Program-made: the position numbers | Source: a virus | Taxonomy: Duplodnaviria; Caudoviricetes | Virus record (IMG/VR): IMGVR_UViG_3300000553_000030 | Coordinates: 1,805 to 65,804 of that record | Length of the DNA stretch: 64,000 nucleotides | Strand: one strand, 5' to 3' | In this document: positions 36,001 to 45,000 of the stretch, piece after piece | Layout: each line of letters begins with the position of its first letter | Numbering within the stretch: position 1 is the stretch's first letter

Positions 36001-39000
36001 TCATTCTACTAAACAATACATCAGAAACCATTACCGGTCTGCTTTGATCTTCCTTATCTTCCGCAGCGTCCGCCAGCTCAGAACTTTCGATCTTTTCCCC
36101 AGCATTGTAGTCATTTACTATACTAGTGATAGAATTTACAACCACTTTTCTGGCAGTTTGGTCCTCATTTGGGTCTGCATTTGGGTTCGCTTTAGTGCGA
36201 TATTCGTTCATACATTCTTTGATAATGTTAATAAGTTCGGTTTTCTTCATAATTTGTTCCTAAAAATGGTTAGTCAAGTATAAATATTATACAAACTAGC
36301 AAATGTATTGATTATTTTGGACTAATTTAGGAGCACTTAGAGTATCCGCACGTTGGAGATGAACATTTAGCACACCCCTCTATTCTAATAAGCTTACTAT
36401 TACATACTGGACACGTTTCACCACTAATAAGAGTATTATCTTTAATATATTTTTTAAGTGTTCTAGCTAATACTTTACTAAATGATGTCATTGGCCCACT
36501 AGTTTTTTCGATCTGATGAACTGCGTGTTCAATTCCACCACCATGCCGTAATCCCCATGACAAGCTTCTAGTAATAACATCAGCAGAATCATCACTATGT
36601 CCATTGGTTAATGAAAACTTCTCTTTATCCTCGCCAATAAATATATAATCACCACGAGACATTTTTCTAATTATACCCTTCTCCGGTTCGGTGAAAACTT
36701 CATCCTTCTTACCTTCATTGAACCCAGTGAATACTTCATATGGATTTCCTTCATCATCTACCCCAATAGCAGTATAATACTTGTGTTTACCAATTGTAAA
36801 CAAATGCAACTCACCATTTACATCTTTTGGACGCTTAATAGCTTGTGTCTTGGATATAACGAATTTATTTTTGGTTTCATGAACTAAGATTCCCTTGCGA
36901 CTACCATCACGATATACAGTAACACCAATAATACCAAGCTCTTGTGCCTTTAAGAATACGTCGCCCAATTCTTTTTCAGAACAATCGTTTGGCAAATTAA
37001 TAGTTTTGCTTACTGATAAACTTATATTATTAGCAACTTCGGCTAATACTTTTAAATGCCCCATCGGAGTAATATCTCCAGCGACTTTAAATGCAACTTG
37101 TTCTTCCTTTGTTAAGAACGGACAACCCTGACAACTACCATTATGAGAGGCAACATAGTGATAAATAATATCTTTATCTTTCTGATAAGTTGTCTCAACA
37201 AATTCTTCAAACACAGGATCAACTATATAAACGTGTTCGTATGTCTTATTTTCTTTTTCAATCTTTCTGGTAAATACCAACCCAAACACCGGCTCAATTC
37301 CGCTCGATGTATCGGCAATATAACTAATTGTTCCGGTTGGAGCAATTGATGTAAAGCAACTGTTATGAACACCATATTTTTTAATGTCTGCTTTCAGTTG
37401 AACAATATCAATCCCCATGAATGTATCTTCGGTAAAAAATCTCTTGTTTGCATCCATGAATACATCATGATTATAATATTTGTAAGTCTTACCAAGTTTC
37501 TTTGCTAATTGCATACTTCTACGCATTGAAACTAAAGTAATAAATTTGCTAATATTTCGTGTTAATTCACAGGCTTTATCCGAATCATAACATATCCCCA
37601 ATTTGAAAAACGTATGAGCCAATCCCATCATCCCCAATCCAATCGGTCTAACCGCATGCGTTTCATCATGAATTTTTTGAACGGGGTAGCTATTATTATC
37701 AATGATTCCATTTAGATAGATTGTTGCTTCTTCTGTAATGGTTTCTAATCTTTTCCAATTAATATCTTTTTTATCTAAGTCTACAAGGTGGGATAGATTA
37801 ATAGAACCAAGATTACAACTTGTATATGGAATGTGTACATATTCGCTGCACGGATTGGAATAGACTTCGTCCGTTATATGTTTACATGTGCATCTTTCAA
37901 CCGCTAATTCACCATTAAAGATTCCGGGTTCAGCGAAGTCCCATGCGTTATGAATAATTTTATCCCATAACATTTTATATGTATATTCAGTTCCAGCGTC
38001 ATCTTTAAGAACGTTTTCCTTACCATCCACAACATTTCTTGTTTTAAATATTCTGTCGGGGGTTTTCTTTAGTACTTCATAAAACTTTTTGTCCGGTCTA
38101 ACTGAAAAATTACTGCGACTGTACTTCTCATCGGAGTCATCATCACGTTTCTTCTTTTTGGTCAGTGCCTTTGCTTCAATAAATTTTAGGATATCCGGGT
38201 GATATATAGACAGCATACTCATTCCAGCACCACGACGCTTACCGCCTTGTCTAACACCATCCAATACTGCATCAAAAATTCCAATGAAGGACATCACCCC
38301 ACCTGAGTTTGCGCTTATGGATTTTACATTTTCATTGGAACCACGAAGTTTAGACCAATCATAACCAACTCCTCCGGCGGCCTTTGTAACTAGTGCTGCT
38401 TCGTGCATCGATTCCATAATGTCATCAATACTATCCTTCACTCCCAAAATGAAACACGATGAGAGGGTTCCGTTTCTCTCGCCTTTTGTATTTAAATTCA
38501 TTATTGTTGGTGTACTTGGGATGAATGTTCTTGATTGGATATAATCATACATTGGTAAGTGTATTTCTGACAACCGTTTAGAGATTTGATCCCAGCTTGC
38601 TTCTTGTTTTAGGTAATATCTCTCTGTTAAAATGTTTTCAATGTGTGGTTTTAATTTCGTAACTGCTTCAATTTTTTCTGTCATATGTGGAAACTCCGTT
38701 GTAGGAATAATTATGTTTCCGTTTCATCAAACCTTTGTTTTTACAGAAATATTCATAAATTTTTTATGTATGTTTTCGTATTGTGTTTACTATAAAATTA
38801 TTCGTCATCATCCATGTGTTTTTTCCATTTATTACTGAGCAATTTCTTCACAATGTTTTCACTATCACCCATTTGCCCCATGATACCAACACCCTCTTGT
38901 GATTTTTCATCAAATAACTGAATATCTCCACAACCAGCATTCATTTTACTGGGGAATGTAATACCATCTGGACCAAATCGGTTTTTAATAATGTGAAATC

Positions 39001-42000: not shown

Positions 42001-45000
42001 TAGATTGCAAATTTCGTATTTCTTCAATGGCCGCGTCTTCTGACATTCCCTTTCTAATCATCCAATATTCTTTTTTAAAACATGAATTTTCAGGCTTTAT
42101 TTTTGATACAGATTTCCTCGCGTTTTCTTTTTGTATATCTGTTACTTTGGCTTTGGCGGCTTCTTCTGTCATGCCATTTTGCATCCAATATTGATATCGA
42201 TATATAGAAAATTCTTTCTTTTGTTTCATATACATAAATAGTATCCAATAATCATAAAAAGTCAATTTTTTATGTTATTTTTCCACAACCACTGATTTTT
42301 TATATTTTTCAATTTCAAAAAAAACATTTTCAACTTGCCATCCAAATAATTCTTTATCATCAATTTTATAAATTTCAAACGGATTAATCCATAAAATATA
42401 AGGATTGCCAGAATTTCCGACGATTTCTATACCAAATTCATGATATTGAATTTCAATTTCCGTGTTTGGACCAACACATTTTCCTGCTCCGGCACAAGCA
42501 GTAACAATTCCCAATTCTCCGGGTGCCAATCCACCATCCATTGCAACATCAATCACTGGCCAATTTGTTTTAATTGTATTACGGGCCATTACGCTCATCC
42601 GTTTATCAACATCAATGATATAATCATGCCCAACATTTCTTTCCATACCAGCTTTCAAAGCATTATCAACACGGACCTTAATTTTTTCATACTCACCACT
42701 TTTCAGATGTTCAACACTATCAACAATTGCACTTTTCAGTGTCTGATTTTTACAAAATTCCAAAAATTCATTTTTTATAAAGGTAATATCAGAATCAGAT
42801 ATTTTCTGGTATACCTGCCGCAATTGATCTACAATAGATGCCCTCAATATTTCCGACTGAAGCTCTCCTGTCTTTATCTTGAATACTTGTGGCGTGGGAA
42901 TATCCTTATATTGATTGAAGTATGTAATGATTACATTTACAATCCATTTATGAGCATCACTTTCCCAATAATCTTCTTTTATAATATCATAAATTCTTTC
43001 CAAAAATGTCTTTTCACCTAATAGACATGAAATGCTCTTTACTTGAAAATCTGTTCCGAATTTGGTCAACGTGTCATTGTTATTGTTATTCATAATTTAG
43101 TATTCCTAATGTTACTACAAGAACGAAAATAGTTCAACATTTTATAAAACTTTTTTCTGTGGGTAATAATAGATAGTTATTATAAACACGGACAAAATTT
43201 TTTAATTGTTCTTTTATTTTTTGTGTCGGTGTTCGTATATAATATCTACCAACTTAAAAAACTCCGATTCTTGAAAATTAGATTTCAATGAATTTATATC
43301 CTTATGAATCCATTGCACGTTTTCTTCTGTATATCCAATGGATGAATCTATTCTATCTAATGAAGCTGTTGTGGGAGTGCCTAGATATTTATTACCAAAA
43401 AATATTTCCCATCCACTAATAACACATCTTTTATTCTGTTTTAAAAACAGTTTCCATAAAAATTCCTGCGACACATCATATACAATACCTCTGCGCTTGG
43501 CATTATTTCTCAACTGTCCAAAATATGAACCGGGGATGTCACCACATTTTGTTCTCCGTTTGCACCCACAAGATACGGCATCATTTTGTAACAATGGTGT
43601 TTTGTAAAATTTCGTGTGTTTCCACATTCACATCTACATATCCAACATGTTCCTCTATTTTTGTTTTCTGTTCTACCCAATACAATCAATTTTCCGAATT
43701 TTTTACCAATAAATTTTTTAGTTTCTAAGTCAACAATTTCCCGCTTAGTTCTAGTTTTAATATTGTATAACCTAAACAACTTTGATATTTTCCCTAGATG
43801 TGTATTATTTTCAGATGCAATTTCCTTTAATGTCTTCGCCATTGAAAAATATTGGTTTTCAAGATACTCTTTTGTCATAATACCTTTCCATTCGTTTTTT
43901 TCTAATAATGTCTCCGTTTTTTGTATAATATCGTTTTTGTCGTTTTTTTCTAGCATATATTTGTTCCTCTTTAGTTGTGTATAACAGTTTTCTTCCCATA
44001 GTATTATTGTATCCTTTGTTATATAAGTAGTTACATAAAAGTAGAAACATTAAATTTAAATTAATATATTATATGAAACAAGAGGGTAAAGTTAATCTAC
44101 CAAAGAGTTTTCCGGGTGGATTTGCTAAACCACCGGTAGGATGGAAACCTTAATCTAATTAAGGCACAAAAAAGAGGCTTATGTTAATTCGTAAGCCTCT
44201 TTTTTGTATATTGTGTTACTTAGCTAACTTCTTCGTCGCCGGCGGCTTCGGGAGCACCAGCACCGACTTCGGGAGCTTCTTCTCCAGCTTCTCCACCCTC
44301 TTCTCCCTGTCCCTGTGTCATAGCAGCAGAAAGGATAGACGATAATTGAGTAGCCAATTCCATGGGAATAGTGATGGTAATTTCGGCCGGAGCTTCCTGT
44401 TCTCCGCCTTCACCAGCTCCAACTTCTGGACCTACGCCAGCATCCATGTCAGTCTCGCCTTCAACTTCCTTAATTACTTCACTGATTAATCGCTTCAACT
44501 CTGATTTCTTCATAAATAAATTCCTTGTATGTTACATATAAATAGTAAATACTTGGTTTAAAAGATGATTATTTAACAAAGTTATCTAATCTTCCAAAGC
44601 ACTCCGATAACCATACTCCACTATTAGGTAAATTATTCCACGCCCTATCTTCCGTTAGTAATTTTATAAATTCAAAGCGATTAAGTTTATTCAATGGTTT
44701 CTTTACAATTTCATCAATTCTCAATTGACTAAAACTTTGAATTTGAGTGTCAAACAATTGCATCAATTCATAATTACGCTTTACAATATCCTTATTATCA
44801 AGAATGTTTTGATGTAATTTATACTTACCTTTATGAGTATCGGCATAATTGAATAATTCATCGACCGAATACCGATGATGATCCGCCAATATAGGAAAAC
44901 ACTTTTTAATGGTTATTAGTCCGGCACCTTTGACACCATTAATATTATCACTGGTATCACCTTCAAGAATACGATAATTAATGAAATTCTCACAACTAAT

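Follow-up and report, generated by a model that had tools for sequence, protein, structure and literature searches.

A phage gp41-type helicase gene fractured twice, by two unrelated split inteins with endonuclease genes between their halves

The DNA analysed here (hereafter the window; 64,000 nucleotides of the viral record IMGVR_UViG_3300000553_000030) belongs to an uncultured freshwater phage. On the reading that we prefer, with a probability put at about 0.85, its replicative helicase, of the T4 gp41 type (DnaB family), is encoded in three pieces that are translated separately: two split inteins unrelated to each other fracture the gene, and each was itself interrupted by a free-standing gene for a Vsr-like homing endonuclease, which still lies between the intein halves. 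We infer that the pieces are rejoined by protein splicing. The locus is the known fractured-gene arrangement occurring twice in one gene. As defined in the relevant sections of Dassa, London, Stoddard, Schueler-Furman and Pietrokovski (2009; PMC2677866), a fractured gene is a locus broken in two with an endonuclease gene between the intein halves, and the window shares with the cases described there the order of elements (N-extein plus IntN, short spacer, same-strand endonuclease gene, IntC plus C-extein), a phage gp41 helicase as host and an endonuclease of the Vsr-like family that was first described in that report. Unlike those cases, the layout occurs twice in a single gene here, giving three pieces and a middle piece of the form IntC-extein-IntN, and one of the breaks in the helicase is atypical, whereas the only atypical break among the cases that the report sets out is in a terminase. 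The arrangement is therefore not unique, being a published layout used twice and recurring in other metagenomic phages, although a literature search brought up no natural three-piece example.

Five ORFs, all co-oriented and tightly packed, occupy positions 43093-38798 of the minus strand, on which all features below lie, and a separate ribosome-binding site precedes each helicase piece. The first ORF (43093-42275) joins helicase extein 1 (42479..43093; 205 aa), which runs from a DnaB-like N-terminal region to the first half of Walker A behind its own AGGA and ATG start, to the 67-aa IntN1 (junction ...ACAGAGK/CVGPNTEIEI...). IntN1 in turn comprises a canonical part of 14 aa (CVGPNTEIEIQYHE; 42437..42478) with block A and the first HINT strands, and an accessory domain of 53 aa (42278..42436) with four short strands and a C-terminal helix, ending at the stop codon 42275-42277. 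Nine nucleotides further on (~39-45 nt if counted to the first ATGs) lies the TTG of endonuclease gene 1 (41507..42265; 252 aa from TTG), for which an ATG 10-12 codons inside is the likelier start, and whose last 17 nt are shared with the start of the next ORF. This middle ORF (41523-40408; RBS AAGGAA and ATG) encodes IntC1 (41116..41523; 136 aa) with the third strand, the first helix, block B S-x-x-H, blocks F/G and the terminal HN, then helicase extein 2 (40681..41115; 145 aa) from the Walker A Ser (SWVLSR...) to motif H4, and finally IntN2 (40411..40680; 90 aa), a canonical gp41-1-like N-half with block B CSIKH and the stop codon 40408-40410; its junctions read ...SNGILSHN/SWVLSR and ...TASQSNR/CFSLQ.... 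After 33 nt follows endonuclease gene 2 (39325..40374; 349 aa) and, 59 nt downstream, the last ORF (39265-38798; RBS GAGGA and ATG), which consists of IntC2 (39125..39265; 47 aa), a canonical C-half ending ...FFANDIYTHN, and helicase extein 3 (38801..39124; 108 aa), starting with the +1 Ser (junction ...DIYTHN/SAMDDD) and closing with the stop codon 38798-38800. The same-strand order of the 2009 report, from extein and IntN through spacer and endonuclease ORF to IntC and extein, is thus present twice.

The host protein is identified mainly by extein 2, which passes the Pfam DnaB_C cut-off (41.3 bits against 27), matches the T4 gp41-type structures 8due/8dtp (E 1e-6) and is 79-83% identical to uninterrupted homologues; the match of the N-terminal region to the DnaB-like domain is sub-threshold (13.4 bits). 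The helicase has the DnaB_C ATPase core, including Walker A and motif H4, Walker A being whole only once junction 1 is joined. The same two functional motifs are occupied by the cis-splicing DnaB inteins that Novikova et al. (2016; PMC4760082) place at insertion points b (P-loop) and a/c (motif H4), but those inteins are contiguous and reside in cellular DnaB. The predicted limits of the inteins agree with related viral loci in IMG/VR: 62 of the 80, among which one phage is in several cases represented by near-duplicates from separate samples (e.g. L010/L011/L013/L019 and L016/L017), carry a single uninterrupted in-frame helicase gene in which the exteins abut exactly at both predicted junctions (for example ...CAGSGK/SWVL... 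and ...SQSNR/AAMDED...). Together with the ORF boundaries, these relatives bear out the first-pass annotation in its view of a helicase in three pieces with two splits of different architecture, and its placing of break 1 within Walker A with a 136-aa IntC carrying block B, and of a conventional 90+47 aa split at break 2, is exact to the residue. The intein and helicase matches, like the agreement of the junctions, far exceed what chance would give, and the anatomy of the locus, its homologies and conservation, and these exact junctions in intein-less relatives are established.

Both inteins retain what splicing needs to be predicted from sequence: Cys1 in each IntN, an S-x-x-H block B in each intein, His-Asn termini and a +1 Ser at both junctions. 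These residues weigh against the reading that the pieces assemble non-covalently, with the intein halves acting as docking domains only and no peptide bond being made. Such assembly has support in principle, as active enzyme is still obtained from the intein-less fractured genes that Dassa et al. cite, and the intein-less split NrdA of phage Aeh1 in their discussion is a precedent (PMC2677866). For the present locus we consider it very improbable: all splicing residues are kept and are invariant across homologues that are 50-70% identical, an unspliced complex would leave foreign domains of ~200 and ~137 aa in Walker A and motif H4, and the +1 Ser of junction 2 occurs in intein-bearing alleles only (Ser in the window and in the two other three-piece loci, L004 and L005; Ala in 5/5 intein-less loci inspected).

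Because the window is a metagenome-derived viral contig, the arrangement might be an assembly artefact or chimera, but both breaks are spanned, at 99%+ identity, by contigs of other freshwater/lake runs with the labels 2016 and 2020. IntN1, endonuclease gene 1 and IntC1 are bridged by X2 record 4 and X3 record 18, and IntN2, endonuclease gene 2 and IntC2 by X2 record 1 and X6 record 21, in each case with 0-6 differing letters, and no alternative joint was seen. Exact protein copies are present on 4-6 contigs (that of ORF3 on five contigs from three sources), and orthologous layouts occur in many IMG/VR contigs. These independent contigs effectively refute an artefact, to which we assign a negligible probability. 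The same build recurs at a distance: L004 and L005 share only ~60% identity with the window, the endonuclease genes of L004 being reduced to remnants; P0003 and P0009 are middle pieces of the same build, and an IntC1-like start is found in 16 of the best 28 50%-identity representatives. Relatives with split forms lacking the endonuclease gene, and those with remnants of it, match steps II-III of the model that Dassa et al. outline (PMC2677866).

Could the three pieces be a decaying relic, with an intact helicase elsewhere in the genome doing the work? The record covers just 19% of the genome (CheckV), and homing endonuclease genes crowd the window. Against this reading, the three pieces are all open and have start signals, the intein halves are under purifying selection, and the same build has been kept in phages ~40% diverged. 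The 65.8-kb record of the window has one DnaB_C match, and no intact helicase was found elsewhere in that record; the other two three-piece records are likewise fragments, of 22% and 10% completeness. A relative of 297 kb rated 100% complete (G003, L012) has its intein-1-split helicase as the single DnaB_C match. To our knowledge, T4-like replication modules carry one gp41, which also counts against a second copy. Taken together, decay is highly unlikely, and a working helicase assembled from the three pieces is the preferred reading.

Intein 1 is one fold that exists in mini, contiguous and split forms among the relatives. It is contiguous (204 aa) in L016 and L017 and also in the representatives P0002, P0005 and P0008; P0007, P0010 and P0017 have a mini form lacking the ~50-aa insert; and in 15 related split loci IntN1 measures 63-74 aa. 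As in a class 1 intein, Cys1 directly follows GAGK and is invariant in 12/12 IntN1 sequences, as are S73, H76, D118, H125, H135 and N136 of IntC1 in 12/12 sequences (alignment A4); the Walker A Ser serves as the +1 residue. IntC1 contains block B (S-x-x-H within LKTSGKHRL), and its residues 10-97 match positions 8-93 of the Pfam Intein_splicing profile. The HINT horseshoe was recovered for the natural contiguous homologue L016 rather than for the two chains of the window, to whose IntN and IntC parts it is 55% and 51% identical; its AF2 model (pLDDT 77.8) superimposes on solved inteins with Z 13-15.4 and rmsd 2.5-3.0 A over 120-143 residues. Foldseek ranks VidaL, an atypically split intein, first for this model (6vgv, E 7e-7); intein 1 has no sequence similarity to VidaL detectable with phmmer, and the break position corresponds to the lowest-confidence internal linker of the model.

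Aligned to its mini-intein relatives, intein 1 is broken downstream of the second strand and ahead of KIKMKDLFDRL, a strand-plus-helix element. The third strand and the first helix thus lie beyond the break, as does block B, which is in IntC, so that on alignment and model intein 1 is split near its N-terminus in the manner of the S1 type of atypical split. Of the natural cases given in PMC13014065, VidaL and PolB16 are S1 splits (after the second strand) and AceL-TerL and GOS-TerL are S2 splits (after the first helix), the IntN being 15-37 aa long throughout. Intein 1 resembles VidaL and PolB16 in its break near the N-terminus at the S1 position and in an IntC that holds block B and everything downstream, but its IntN is 67 aa (63-74 aa in relatives) compared with the 15-37 aa listed there. 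It is therefore not a plain member of the class and is better described as S1-like, a distinct variant.

IntN1 is long because a conserved ~50-aa domain stands between the canonical 14 residues and the break, so that most of IntN1 is an extra domain outside the HINT core. The second strand is followed by this inserted domain, at whose C-terminal end the intein is split. Only ~13-15 residues are common to IntN1 and the mini-intein relatives (alignment A5), while fourteen columns are invariant among the 12 IntN1 sequences. Folded alone (AF2, mean pLDDT 82), IntN1 is predicted to have strands at 15-45 and a helix at 46-66, its canonical residues being without secondary structure; in the contiguous homologue L016 the accessory-domain elements reach a pLDDT of ~90. 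Fold and family searches with the accessory domain found no match.

Both halves of intein 2 are significantly similar to the gp41-1 intein (structure 6qaz): IntN2 with E 1.7e-15 (phmmer, ORF residues 284-370) and IntC2, against residues 91-128, with E 6.4e-5. Break 2 is a canonical split intein related to gp41-1, and it agrees with gp41-1 (PDB 6qaz/6riz) in host protein type, canonical split, piece sizes (90+47 aa), Cys1 and +1 Ser. Its charge pattern (IntN positive, IntC negative) is also that which Dassa et al. describe for gp41-1 and gp41-8 (PMC2677866). The resemblance to the gp41-1/gp41-8 inteins that had been noticed at the outset consequently stands for gp41-1 at the level of sequence, while the insertion point differs: gp41-1 is inserted at position 356 of P-SSM2 gp41 according to the same source (Dassa et al. 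2009, PMC2677866), whereas an ungapped alignment puts junction 2 between R352 and S353 of the annotated 460-aa protein, 3-4 residues upstream. The gp41-1 insertion point was accordingly rejected for break 2. The junction may more closely resemble that of gp41-8, an intein that is not among the PDB matches of either half.

For both endonuclease genes a Vsr-type (DUF559 / EDxHD) core is indicated by Pfam DUF559 matches above the cut-off of 20.6 bits. Gene 1 scores 26.5 bits and also matches MTES_1575 and PHROG 22677; its similarity to the Vsr structures 1odg/1vsr over the G-x-FWH ... IWE motifs is weak (E 0.025), and orthologues are found at the same position in 13/80 related loci. Gene 2 scores 29.8 bits (MTES_1575, 35.4 bits) and has no sequence match among solved structures in the PDB, and genes related to it lie between IntN2 and IntC2 in L005, L084-L087, L089 and L091-L093. 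In four pairs among L008, L009, L012 and L014, which share loci and are thus not independent, dN/dS is 0.03-0.08 for IntN1 and 0.05-0.08 for IntC1. Because dS of the intein parts in the same pairs is well below that of the flanking exteins (0.32-0.86 against 1.4 to saturated), intein 1 looks younger than its host gene, as expected of a homing element.

In the mechanism that we propose, expression and splicing both being inferred, piece 1 (extein 1 plus IntN1) would dock to piece 2 through IntN1/IntC1, whose splicing would rebuild the Walker A loop GAGK-S, and piece 2 would dock to piece 3 through IntN2/IntC2, whose splicing would rebuild motif H4 as SQSNR-S, the end product being a 458-aa helicase. 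The first-pass annotation had envisaged an ordered ligation, and an unspliced 203-aa intein 1 at Walker A could in principle hinder folding of the ATPase core around junction 2. The sequence imposes no such order, though: the inteins use different partners, the junctions are 145 residues apart, and relatives have either intein alone, in cis or in trans, so that each evidently works without the other. An obligatory order is hence unlikely, and two most probably independent and orthogonal reactions with separate partners are the simpler reading. Orthogonality, which the first-pass annotation had put forward as a ready-made pair, is plausible from the different split topologies and from the charges (IntN1 -6 / IntC1 +11; IntN2 +7 / IntC2 -8): because the polarity is opposite, cognate pairs should attract and both mixed pairs repel. 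The arrangement resembles engineered tandem trans-splicing, in which two non-cross-reacting split inteins link three segments, the middle one bearing an IntC in front and an IntN behind (PMC12707363 and PMC7090010). Those systems are man-made combinations, whereas here the two inteins appear to have been co-selected within a single natural gene, and the locus would correspond, in nature, to the three-segment ligation that is assembled by hand in protein engineering.

The neighbouring UvsX gene shows the same kind of fracture, and this phage appears to use at least four trans-splicing reactions, two for the helicase and two for UvsX, as predicted from sequence. Three of the four are predicted to be split right after near-identical short N-peptides (C-V-x-x-x-T-x-I-x-I). 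An IntC-extein-IntN order, as in the middle helicase piece, is the topology used for cyclisation. Tentatively, the ~50-aa accessory domain of IntN1 may be a natural specificity and affinity module that steers the helicase N-piece to its own IntC and away from the UvsX IntCs, while the opposite charges of inteins 1 and 2 might keep the middle piece from self-circularising; the role in affinity and partner specificity is proposed because the domain is conserved and predicted to fold autonomously, these two properties being its whole basis. In engineered split-intein sets, short peptide halves are reported to cross-react (PMC7090010). If the proposal is true, the locus would be a naturally co-selected multi-intein orthogonality system and would offer a new route to high-affinity atypical split inteins. 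The two endonuclease genes, the extra domain of IntN1 and the UvsX fracture are additions to what the first-pass annotation had recorded.

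The parent record of the window (65.8 kb, IMG/VR, 19% complete) carries a T4-like replication module, which lies on the minus strand of the window and comprises gp32-like, UvsX-like, RNase H-like 5'-3' exonuclease, helicase and ribonucleotide reductase genes. The helicase locus (43093-38798, minus strand) consists of five ORFs, all in the same orientation. ORF1 (272 aa) encodes 205 aa of helicase ending in ...ACAGAGK, followed by the N-terminal half of intein 1 (IntN1, 67 aa, first residue Cys). Endonuclease gene 1 (HE1, 252 aa) separates it from ORF3 (371 aa), in which the C-terminal half of intein 1 (IntC1, 136 aa to ...SHN) precedes 145 aa of helicase (SWVLSR to TASQSNR) and the N-terminal half of intein 2 (IntN2, 90 aa, first residue Cys). 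After endonuclease gene 2 (HE2, 349 aa), ORF5 (155 aa) encodes the C-terminal half of intein 2 (IntC2, 47 aa to ...THN) and the last 108 aa of helicase from SAMDDD. The piece sizes and boundaries proposed in the first-pass annotation agree exactly with the three helicase ORFs. Each helicase piece starts with a Shine-Dalgarno-like motif and an ATG, and the spacing of the five ORFs is compatible with co-transcription: HE1 lies 9 nt from ORF1 and overlaps ORF3 by 17 nt, and HE2 is separated from ORF3 by 33 nt and from ORF5 by 59 nt.

To place the junctions, viral contigs were scanned with ORF3, yielding 174 confirmed relatives, and all nine parts of the locus were mapped on the best 80 of these. 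In 62 of these best 80, exteins 1, 2 and 3 lie in a single frame and abut exactly at both predicted junctions; five junction alleles without intein were inspected visually (such as ...CAGSGK|SWVL... and ...SQSNR|AAMDED...). Since uninterrupted relatives join the exteins exactly at both junctions, the spliced product would be an ordinary 458-aa gp41-type helicase. The helicase matches Pfam DnaB_C with 41.3 bits and T4 gp41-type structures at E 1e-6. Junction 1 falls between the Lys and Ser of Walker A and junction 2 within motif H4. These are the same motifs as the known DnaB intein sites, the P-loop being site b and H4 sites a/c, and some bacterial DnaB proteins carry both according to Novikova et al (PMC4760082).

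All catalytic splicing residues are present in both inteins, and both halves of intein 1 are under selection (dN/dS in four pairs that are not independent). The three-piece build also occurs in two loci about 60% identical to the window (L004 and L005); its middle pieces are represented by the 50%-identity protein representatives P0003 and P0009. Exact copies of the proteins are found on four to six contigs from three sources, and both breaks are bridged at an identity of at least 99% by contigs of separate runs that carry freshwater or lake labels of 2016 and 2020. These run contigs contain no joint without endonuclease gene or intein, which does not imply the absence of such alleles because contigs drop rare variants. 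The record of the window has a single DnaB_C match, and a 297-kb relative that is rated complete likewise has just one, its helicase split by intein 1; the three-piece records are all fragments (19% complete for the window, 22% and 10% for the other two). We infer from these sequence comparisons that the three-piece helicase is probably functional and spliced. DNA near-identical to positions 38600-43300 (at least half of the sampled words) is present in 20 of the 24 listed runs, with labels of freshwater or lake water, 2016 and 2020, and a sediment run of 2012 contains 40% of the sampled words. None of the 24 is an RNA run, which has no bearing on expression. The phage seems to be persistent in such waters, with runs of the same year possibly belonging to one campaign.

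Intein 1 is present in 18 of the best 80 relatives and takes several forms. It is contiguous in two loci (L016 and L017, 204 aa, identical to each other in the intein), split without an endonuclease gene in two (L002 and L018), split with a full endonuclease gene in 13 (L003, L005-L015 and L019) and split with an endonuclease remnant only in one (L004). With the L016 intein as query, an exhaustive profile-free protein search gave 203 representatives at E ≤ 1e-3, of which 28 reach E ≤ 1e-10. By match coordinates, 16 of these 28 start with an IntC1-like segment, as expected of the split form, 10 are internal, one is an IntN fragment and one is ambiguous. The alignment of intein 1 (A5) takes in contiguous relatives, since alignments without them put the head of IntC1 over IntN1. 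It identifies P0007, P0010 and P0017 as mini-inteins, in which 13-15 N-terminal residues are directly joined to a K-I-K-x-x-D-L-F element, and L016, P0002, P0005 and P0008 as contiguous inteins with an insert of about 40-55 aa before this element; P0011 and P0026 have other inserts.

Positions 8-93 of the Pfam splicing-domain profile fall inside IntC1, and the break of intein 1 therefore follows the second strand. In a 2026 paper (PMC13014065), this is the S1 position, shared with VidaL and PolB16, while TerL inteins break one element later. The same source gives 15-37 aa for natural atypical IntN pieces, whereas the IntN1-type pieces of related split loci have 63-74 aa, so that intein 1 is a distinct variant of the atypical split. 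Two of the representatives that start with an IntC1-like segment stand out: P0020 (818 aa) also contains a different large contiguous intein with an HNH-like insert near the H4 site, and in P0029 (769 aa) the segment is fused to what looks like another host protein, a long one. Judged by the latter sequence, the atypically split type may also occur in other phage genes. A second IntC1-like match is seen in both L016 and L017 at positions 314-601, some 3 kb upstream of the helicase gene; it shares 33% identity with residues 44-136 and may mark an additional intein in a nearby gene.

Evidence for the fold of intein 1 was taken from the contiguous homologue L016 and not from the two chains of the window. 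The AF2 model of the L016 intein plus 60 aa on either side (alignment A5) has a mean pLDDT of 77.8, with intein blocks mostly at 84-95 and the value falling to 69 in the linker, the site of the break in the split forms. The model aligns to solved inteins with Z 13-15.4 over 120-143 residues, and its top Foldseek match is the atypically split VidaL intein. The model of the window's IntN1 alone (IntN1 alignment A3, pLDDT 82) shows no secondary structure in the first 14 residues, then four short strands over residues 15-45 and a helix over residues 46-66. On this model, IntN1 resembles a disordered splicing peptide of 14 residues that is attached to a small self-folding domain. Across 12 sequences sharing 43-70% identity with the window IntN1, 14 columns of this accessory domain are invariant, and its dN/dS of 0.03-0.08 in four pairs, which share loci and are not independent, indicates purifying selection. 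Its predicted fold has no Foldseek match in the PDB at E ≤ 0.001 (best 1.5), no Pfam family and no usable match in the ESM Atlas.

Intein 2 had been likened to the gp41-1 split intein, and this likeness holds: both halves match the gp41-1 structure 6qaz (IntN2 at E 1.7e-15, IntC2 at E 6.4e-5), and the intein is split at the canonical place into 90 and 47 aa. Junction 2 lies between R352 and S353 of P-SSM2 gp41 (annotated 460 aa; ungapped alignment) and may resemble the junction of gp41-8. Inteins gp41-1 to gp41-7 are inserted at position 356, and gp41-8 and gp41-9 elsewhere (Dassa et al, 2009, PMC2677866); the insertion site of intein 2 (352/353) thus differs from that of gp41-1. Scanning again, this time with IntN2 as the query, gave 12 loci, of which seven (L084-L087, L089, L091 and L092) are helicases with intein 2 alone, split, and a related endonuclease gene between the halves. 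One (L093) combines intein 1 in cis with a split intein 2, two (L088 and L090) run off the contig end, and two (L094 and L095) are weak matches without helicase parts. Intein 2 is split in every one of these loci that has both halves. At junction 2, the +1 residue is Ser in alleles with the intein (window, L004 and L005) versus Ala in the five intein-less alleles inspected, which agrees with the requirement for a nucleophile. L093 has an in-frame TGA in helicase extein 1 (L093:4708), where the representative P0011 has Trp; this may reflect a sequencing difference or stop-codon reassignment, or may mark a pseudogene.

The first-pass annotation had envisaged an ordered ligation, of which we find no indication: relatives carry one or the other intein by itself, whether in cis or in trans, and all combinations are seen. 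Because the middle piece has the structure IntC-extein-IntN, a cross-reaction would circularise it, and the topology therefore requires orthogonality. IntN1 and IntC1 have charges of -6 and +11, versus +7 and -8 for IntN2 and IntC2, so that cognate pairs should attract each other while both mixed pairs, including the intramolecular one, should repel. The split sites also differ, and mixed pairs would therefore lack or duplicate fold elements. We infer that the two inteins are probably mutually orthogonal, which the differing split sites and opposite charges fit. In PMC7090010, gp41-1 and gp41-8 are mutually orthogonal and cross-talk is found chiefly among short-peptide splits.

HE1 and HE2 both pass Pfam DUF559; HE1 aligns weakly to Vsr itself, and HE2 has no match at E ≤ 1 among sequences of solved structures. 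The Vsr-like family is common to these genes and the fractured loci of Dassa et al, half of which contain such endonucleases (PMC2677866). In the closely related loci L008, L009, L012 and L014, dS is 0.32-0.86 for the intein 1 halves versus 1.4 to saturated for the flanking exteins, in four pairs that share loci and are not independent. The intein element therefore looks younger than the host gene, the signature expected of homing, and these sequences suggest a recent horizontal spread of the intein-endonuclease unit. In L004 both inteins are still split and both endonuclease genes are reduced to remnants; splitting therefore persists after the endonuclease has decayed, which corresponds to step III of the fractured-gene model (PMC2677866). 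Further free-standing endonuclease genes are dense in the window (43214-43956, 45621-46505, 29827-30813, 19-882 and 53055-53486). Two HNH-like ORFs lie immediately upstream of the helicase and an additional Vsr-like/MTES_1575 gene between the exonuclease and UvsX, and the window also carries one GIY-YIG + NUMOD3 gene and other HNH genes.

Atypical splits are already known, as are the gp41-1-like intein, the paired P-loop and H4 sites of DnaB inteins, and the fractured-gene layout (Dassa et al, 2009). Atypical inteins in T4-like helicases go by the name T4Lh; the literature searched gave no paper under this name. Neither a natural gene cut in three by two split inteins nor an atypical IntN bearing a folded accessory domain was found in that literature, and an earlier mention of either may exist in subscription papers or the 2009 supplement. 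A tblastn search of ORF3 against 50,697 phage records gave 1691 with a match and none covering at least 80% of the query, so that the layout is unseen in deposited phage genomes at the sensitivity used. If the three pieces splice, the locus would be a case of natural tandem protein trans-splicing, in which an essential hexameric replication enzyme is made from three translation products by two split inteins; within the literature searched, as far as available, this scheme was found as an engineered method only. It would extend the fractured-gene model in that endonuclease invasion of inteins can strike one gene repeatedly and the gene survives. For protein engineering, it offers a co-selected intein pair and a new atypical split form whose N-piece has its own folded handle. 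The relatives provide an unusually complete series of intermediates for the origin of split inteins, from no intein through mini-intein, intein with insert and split with endonuclease gene to split with remnant or none. Intein biologists and protein engineers should find real interest in the locus, which involves no new principle.

Two other replication genes of the window appear to be broken. The family-B DNA polymerase (2463-5160, minus strand) consists of two overlapping ORFs, one (5160-3388) with the exonuclease domain and polymerase profile positions 12-226, the other (3410-2463) with profile positions 246-346; Pfam gives no intein signal, and a gene split, a frameshift or an error may account for the arrangement. 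The UvsX recombinase (46822-51019, minus strand) likewise appears from its sequence to be in three pieces. Piece 1 (51019-50702) ends ...NGLEG|CVTEDTKIKVIIE; its IntN has just 13 aa and lies in Walker A, and an endonuclease-like gene (50661-49579) follows. Piece 2 (49582-48722) comprises an IntC of about 125 aa to NHN|TGKS, the RecA core and a 15-aa IntN (CVDPFTTKIKIRYKV); a DUF559 endonuclease gene (48673-47612) separates it from piece 3 (47631-46822), which has an IntC of about 128 aa to NHN|TVSG and then the RecA C-terminus. Both UvsX breaks look like S1-type atypical splits, and at 13 aa the putative IntN of piece 1 would fall below the 15 aa of the IntN termed 'record-short' in PMC13014065.
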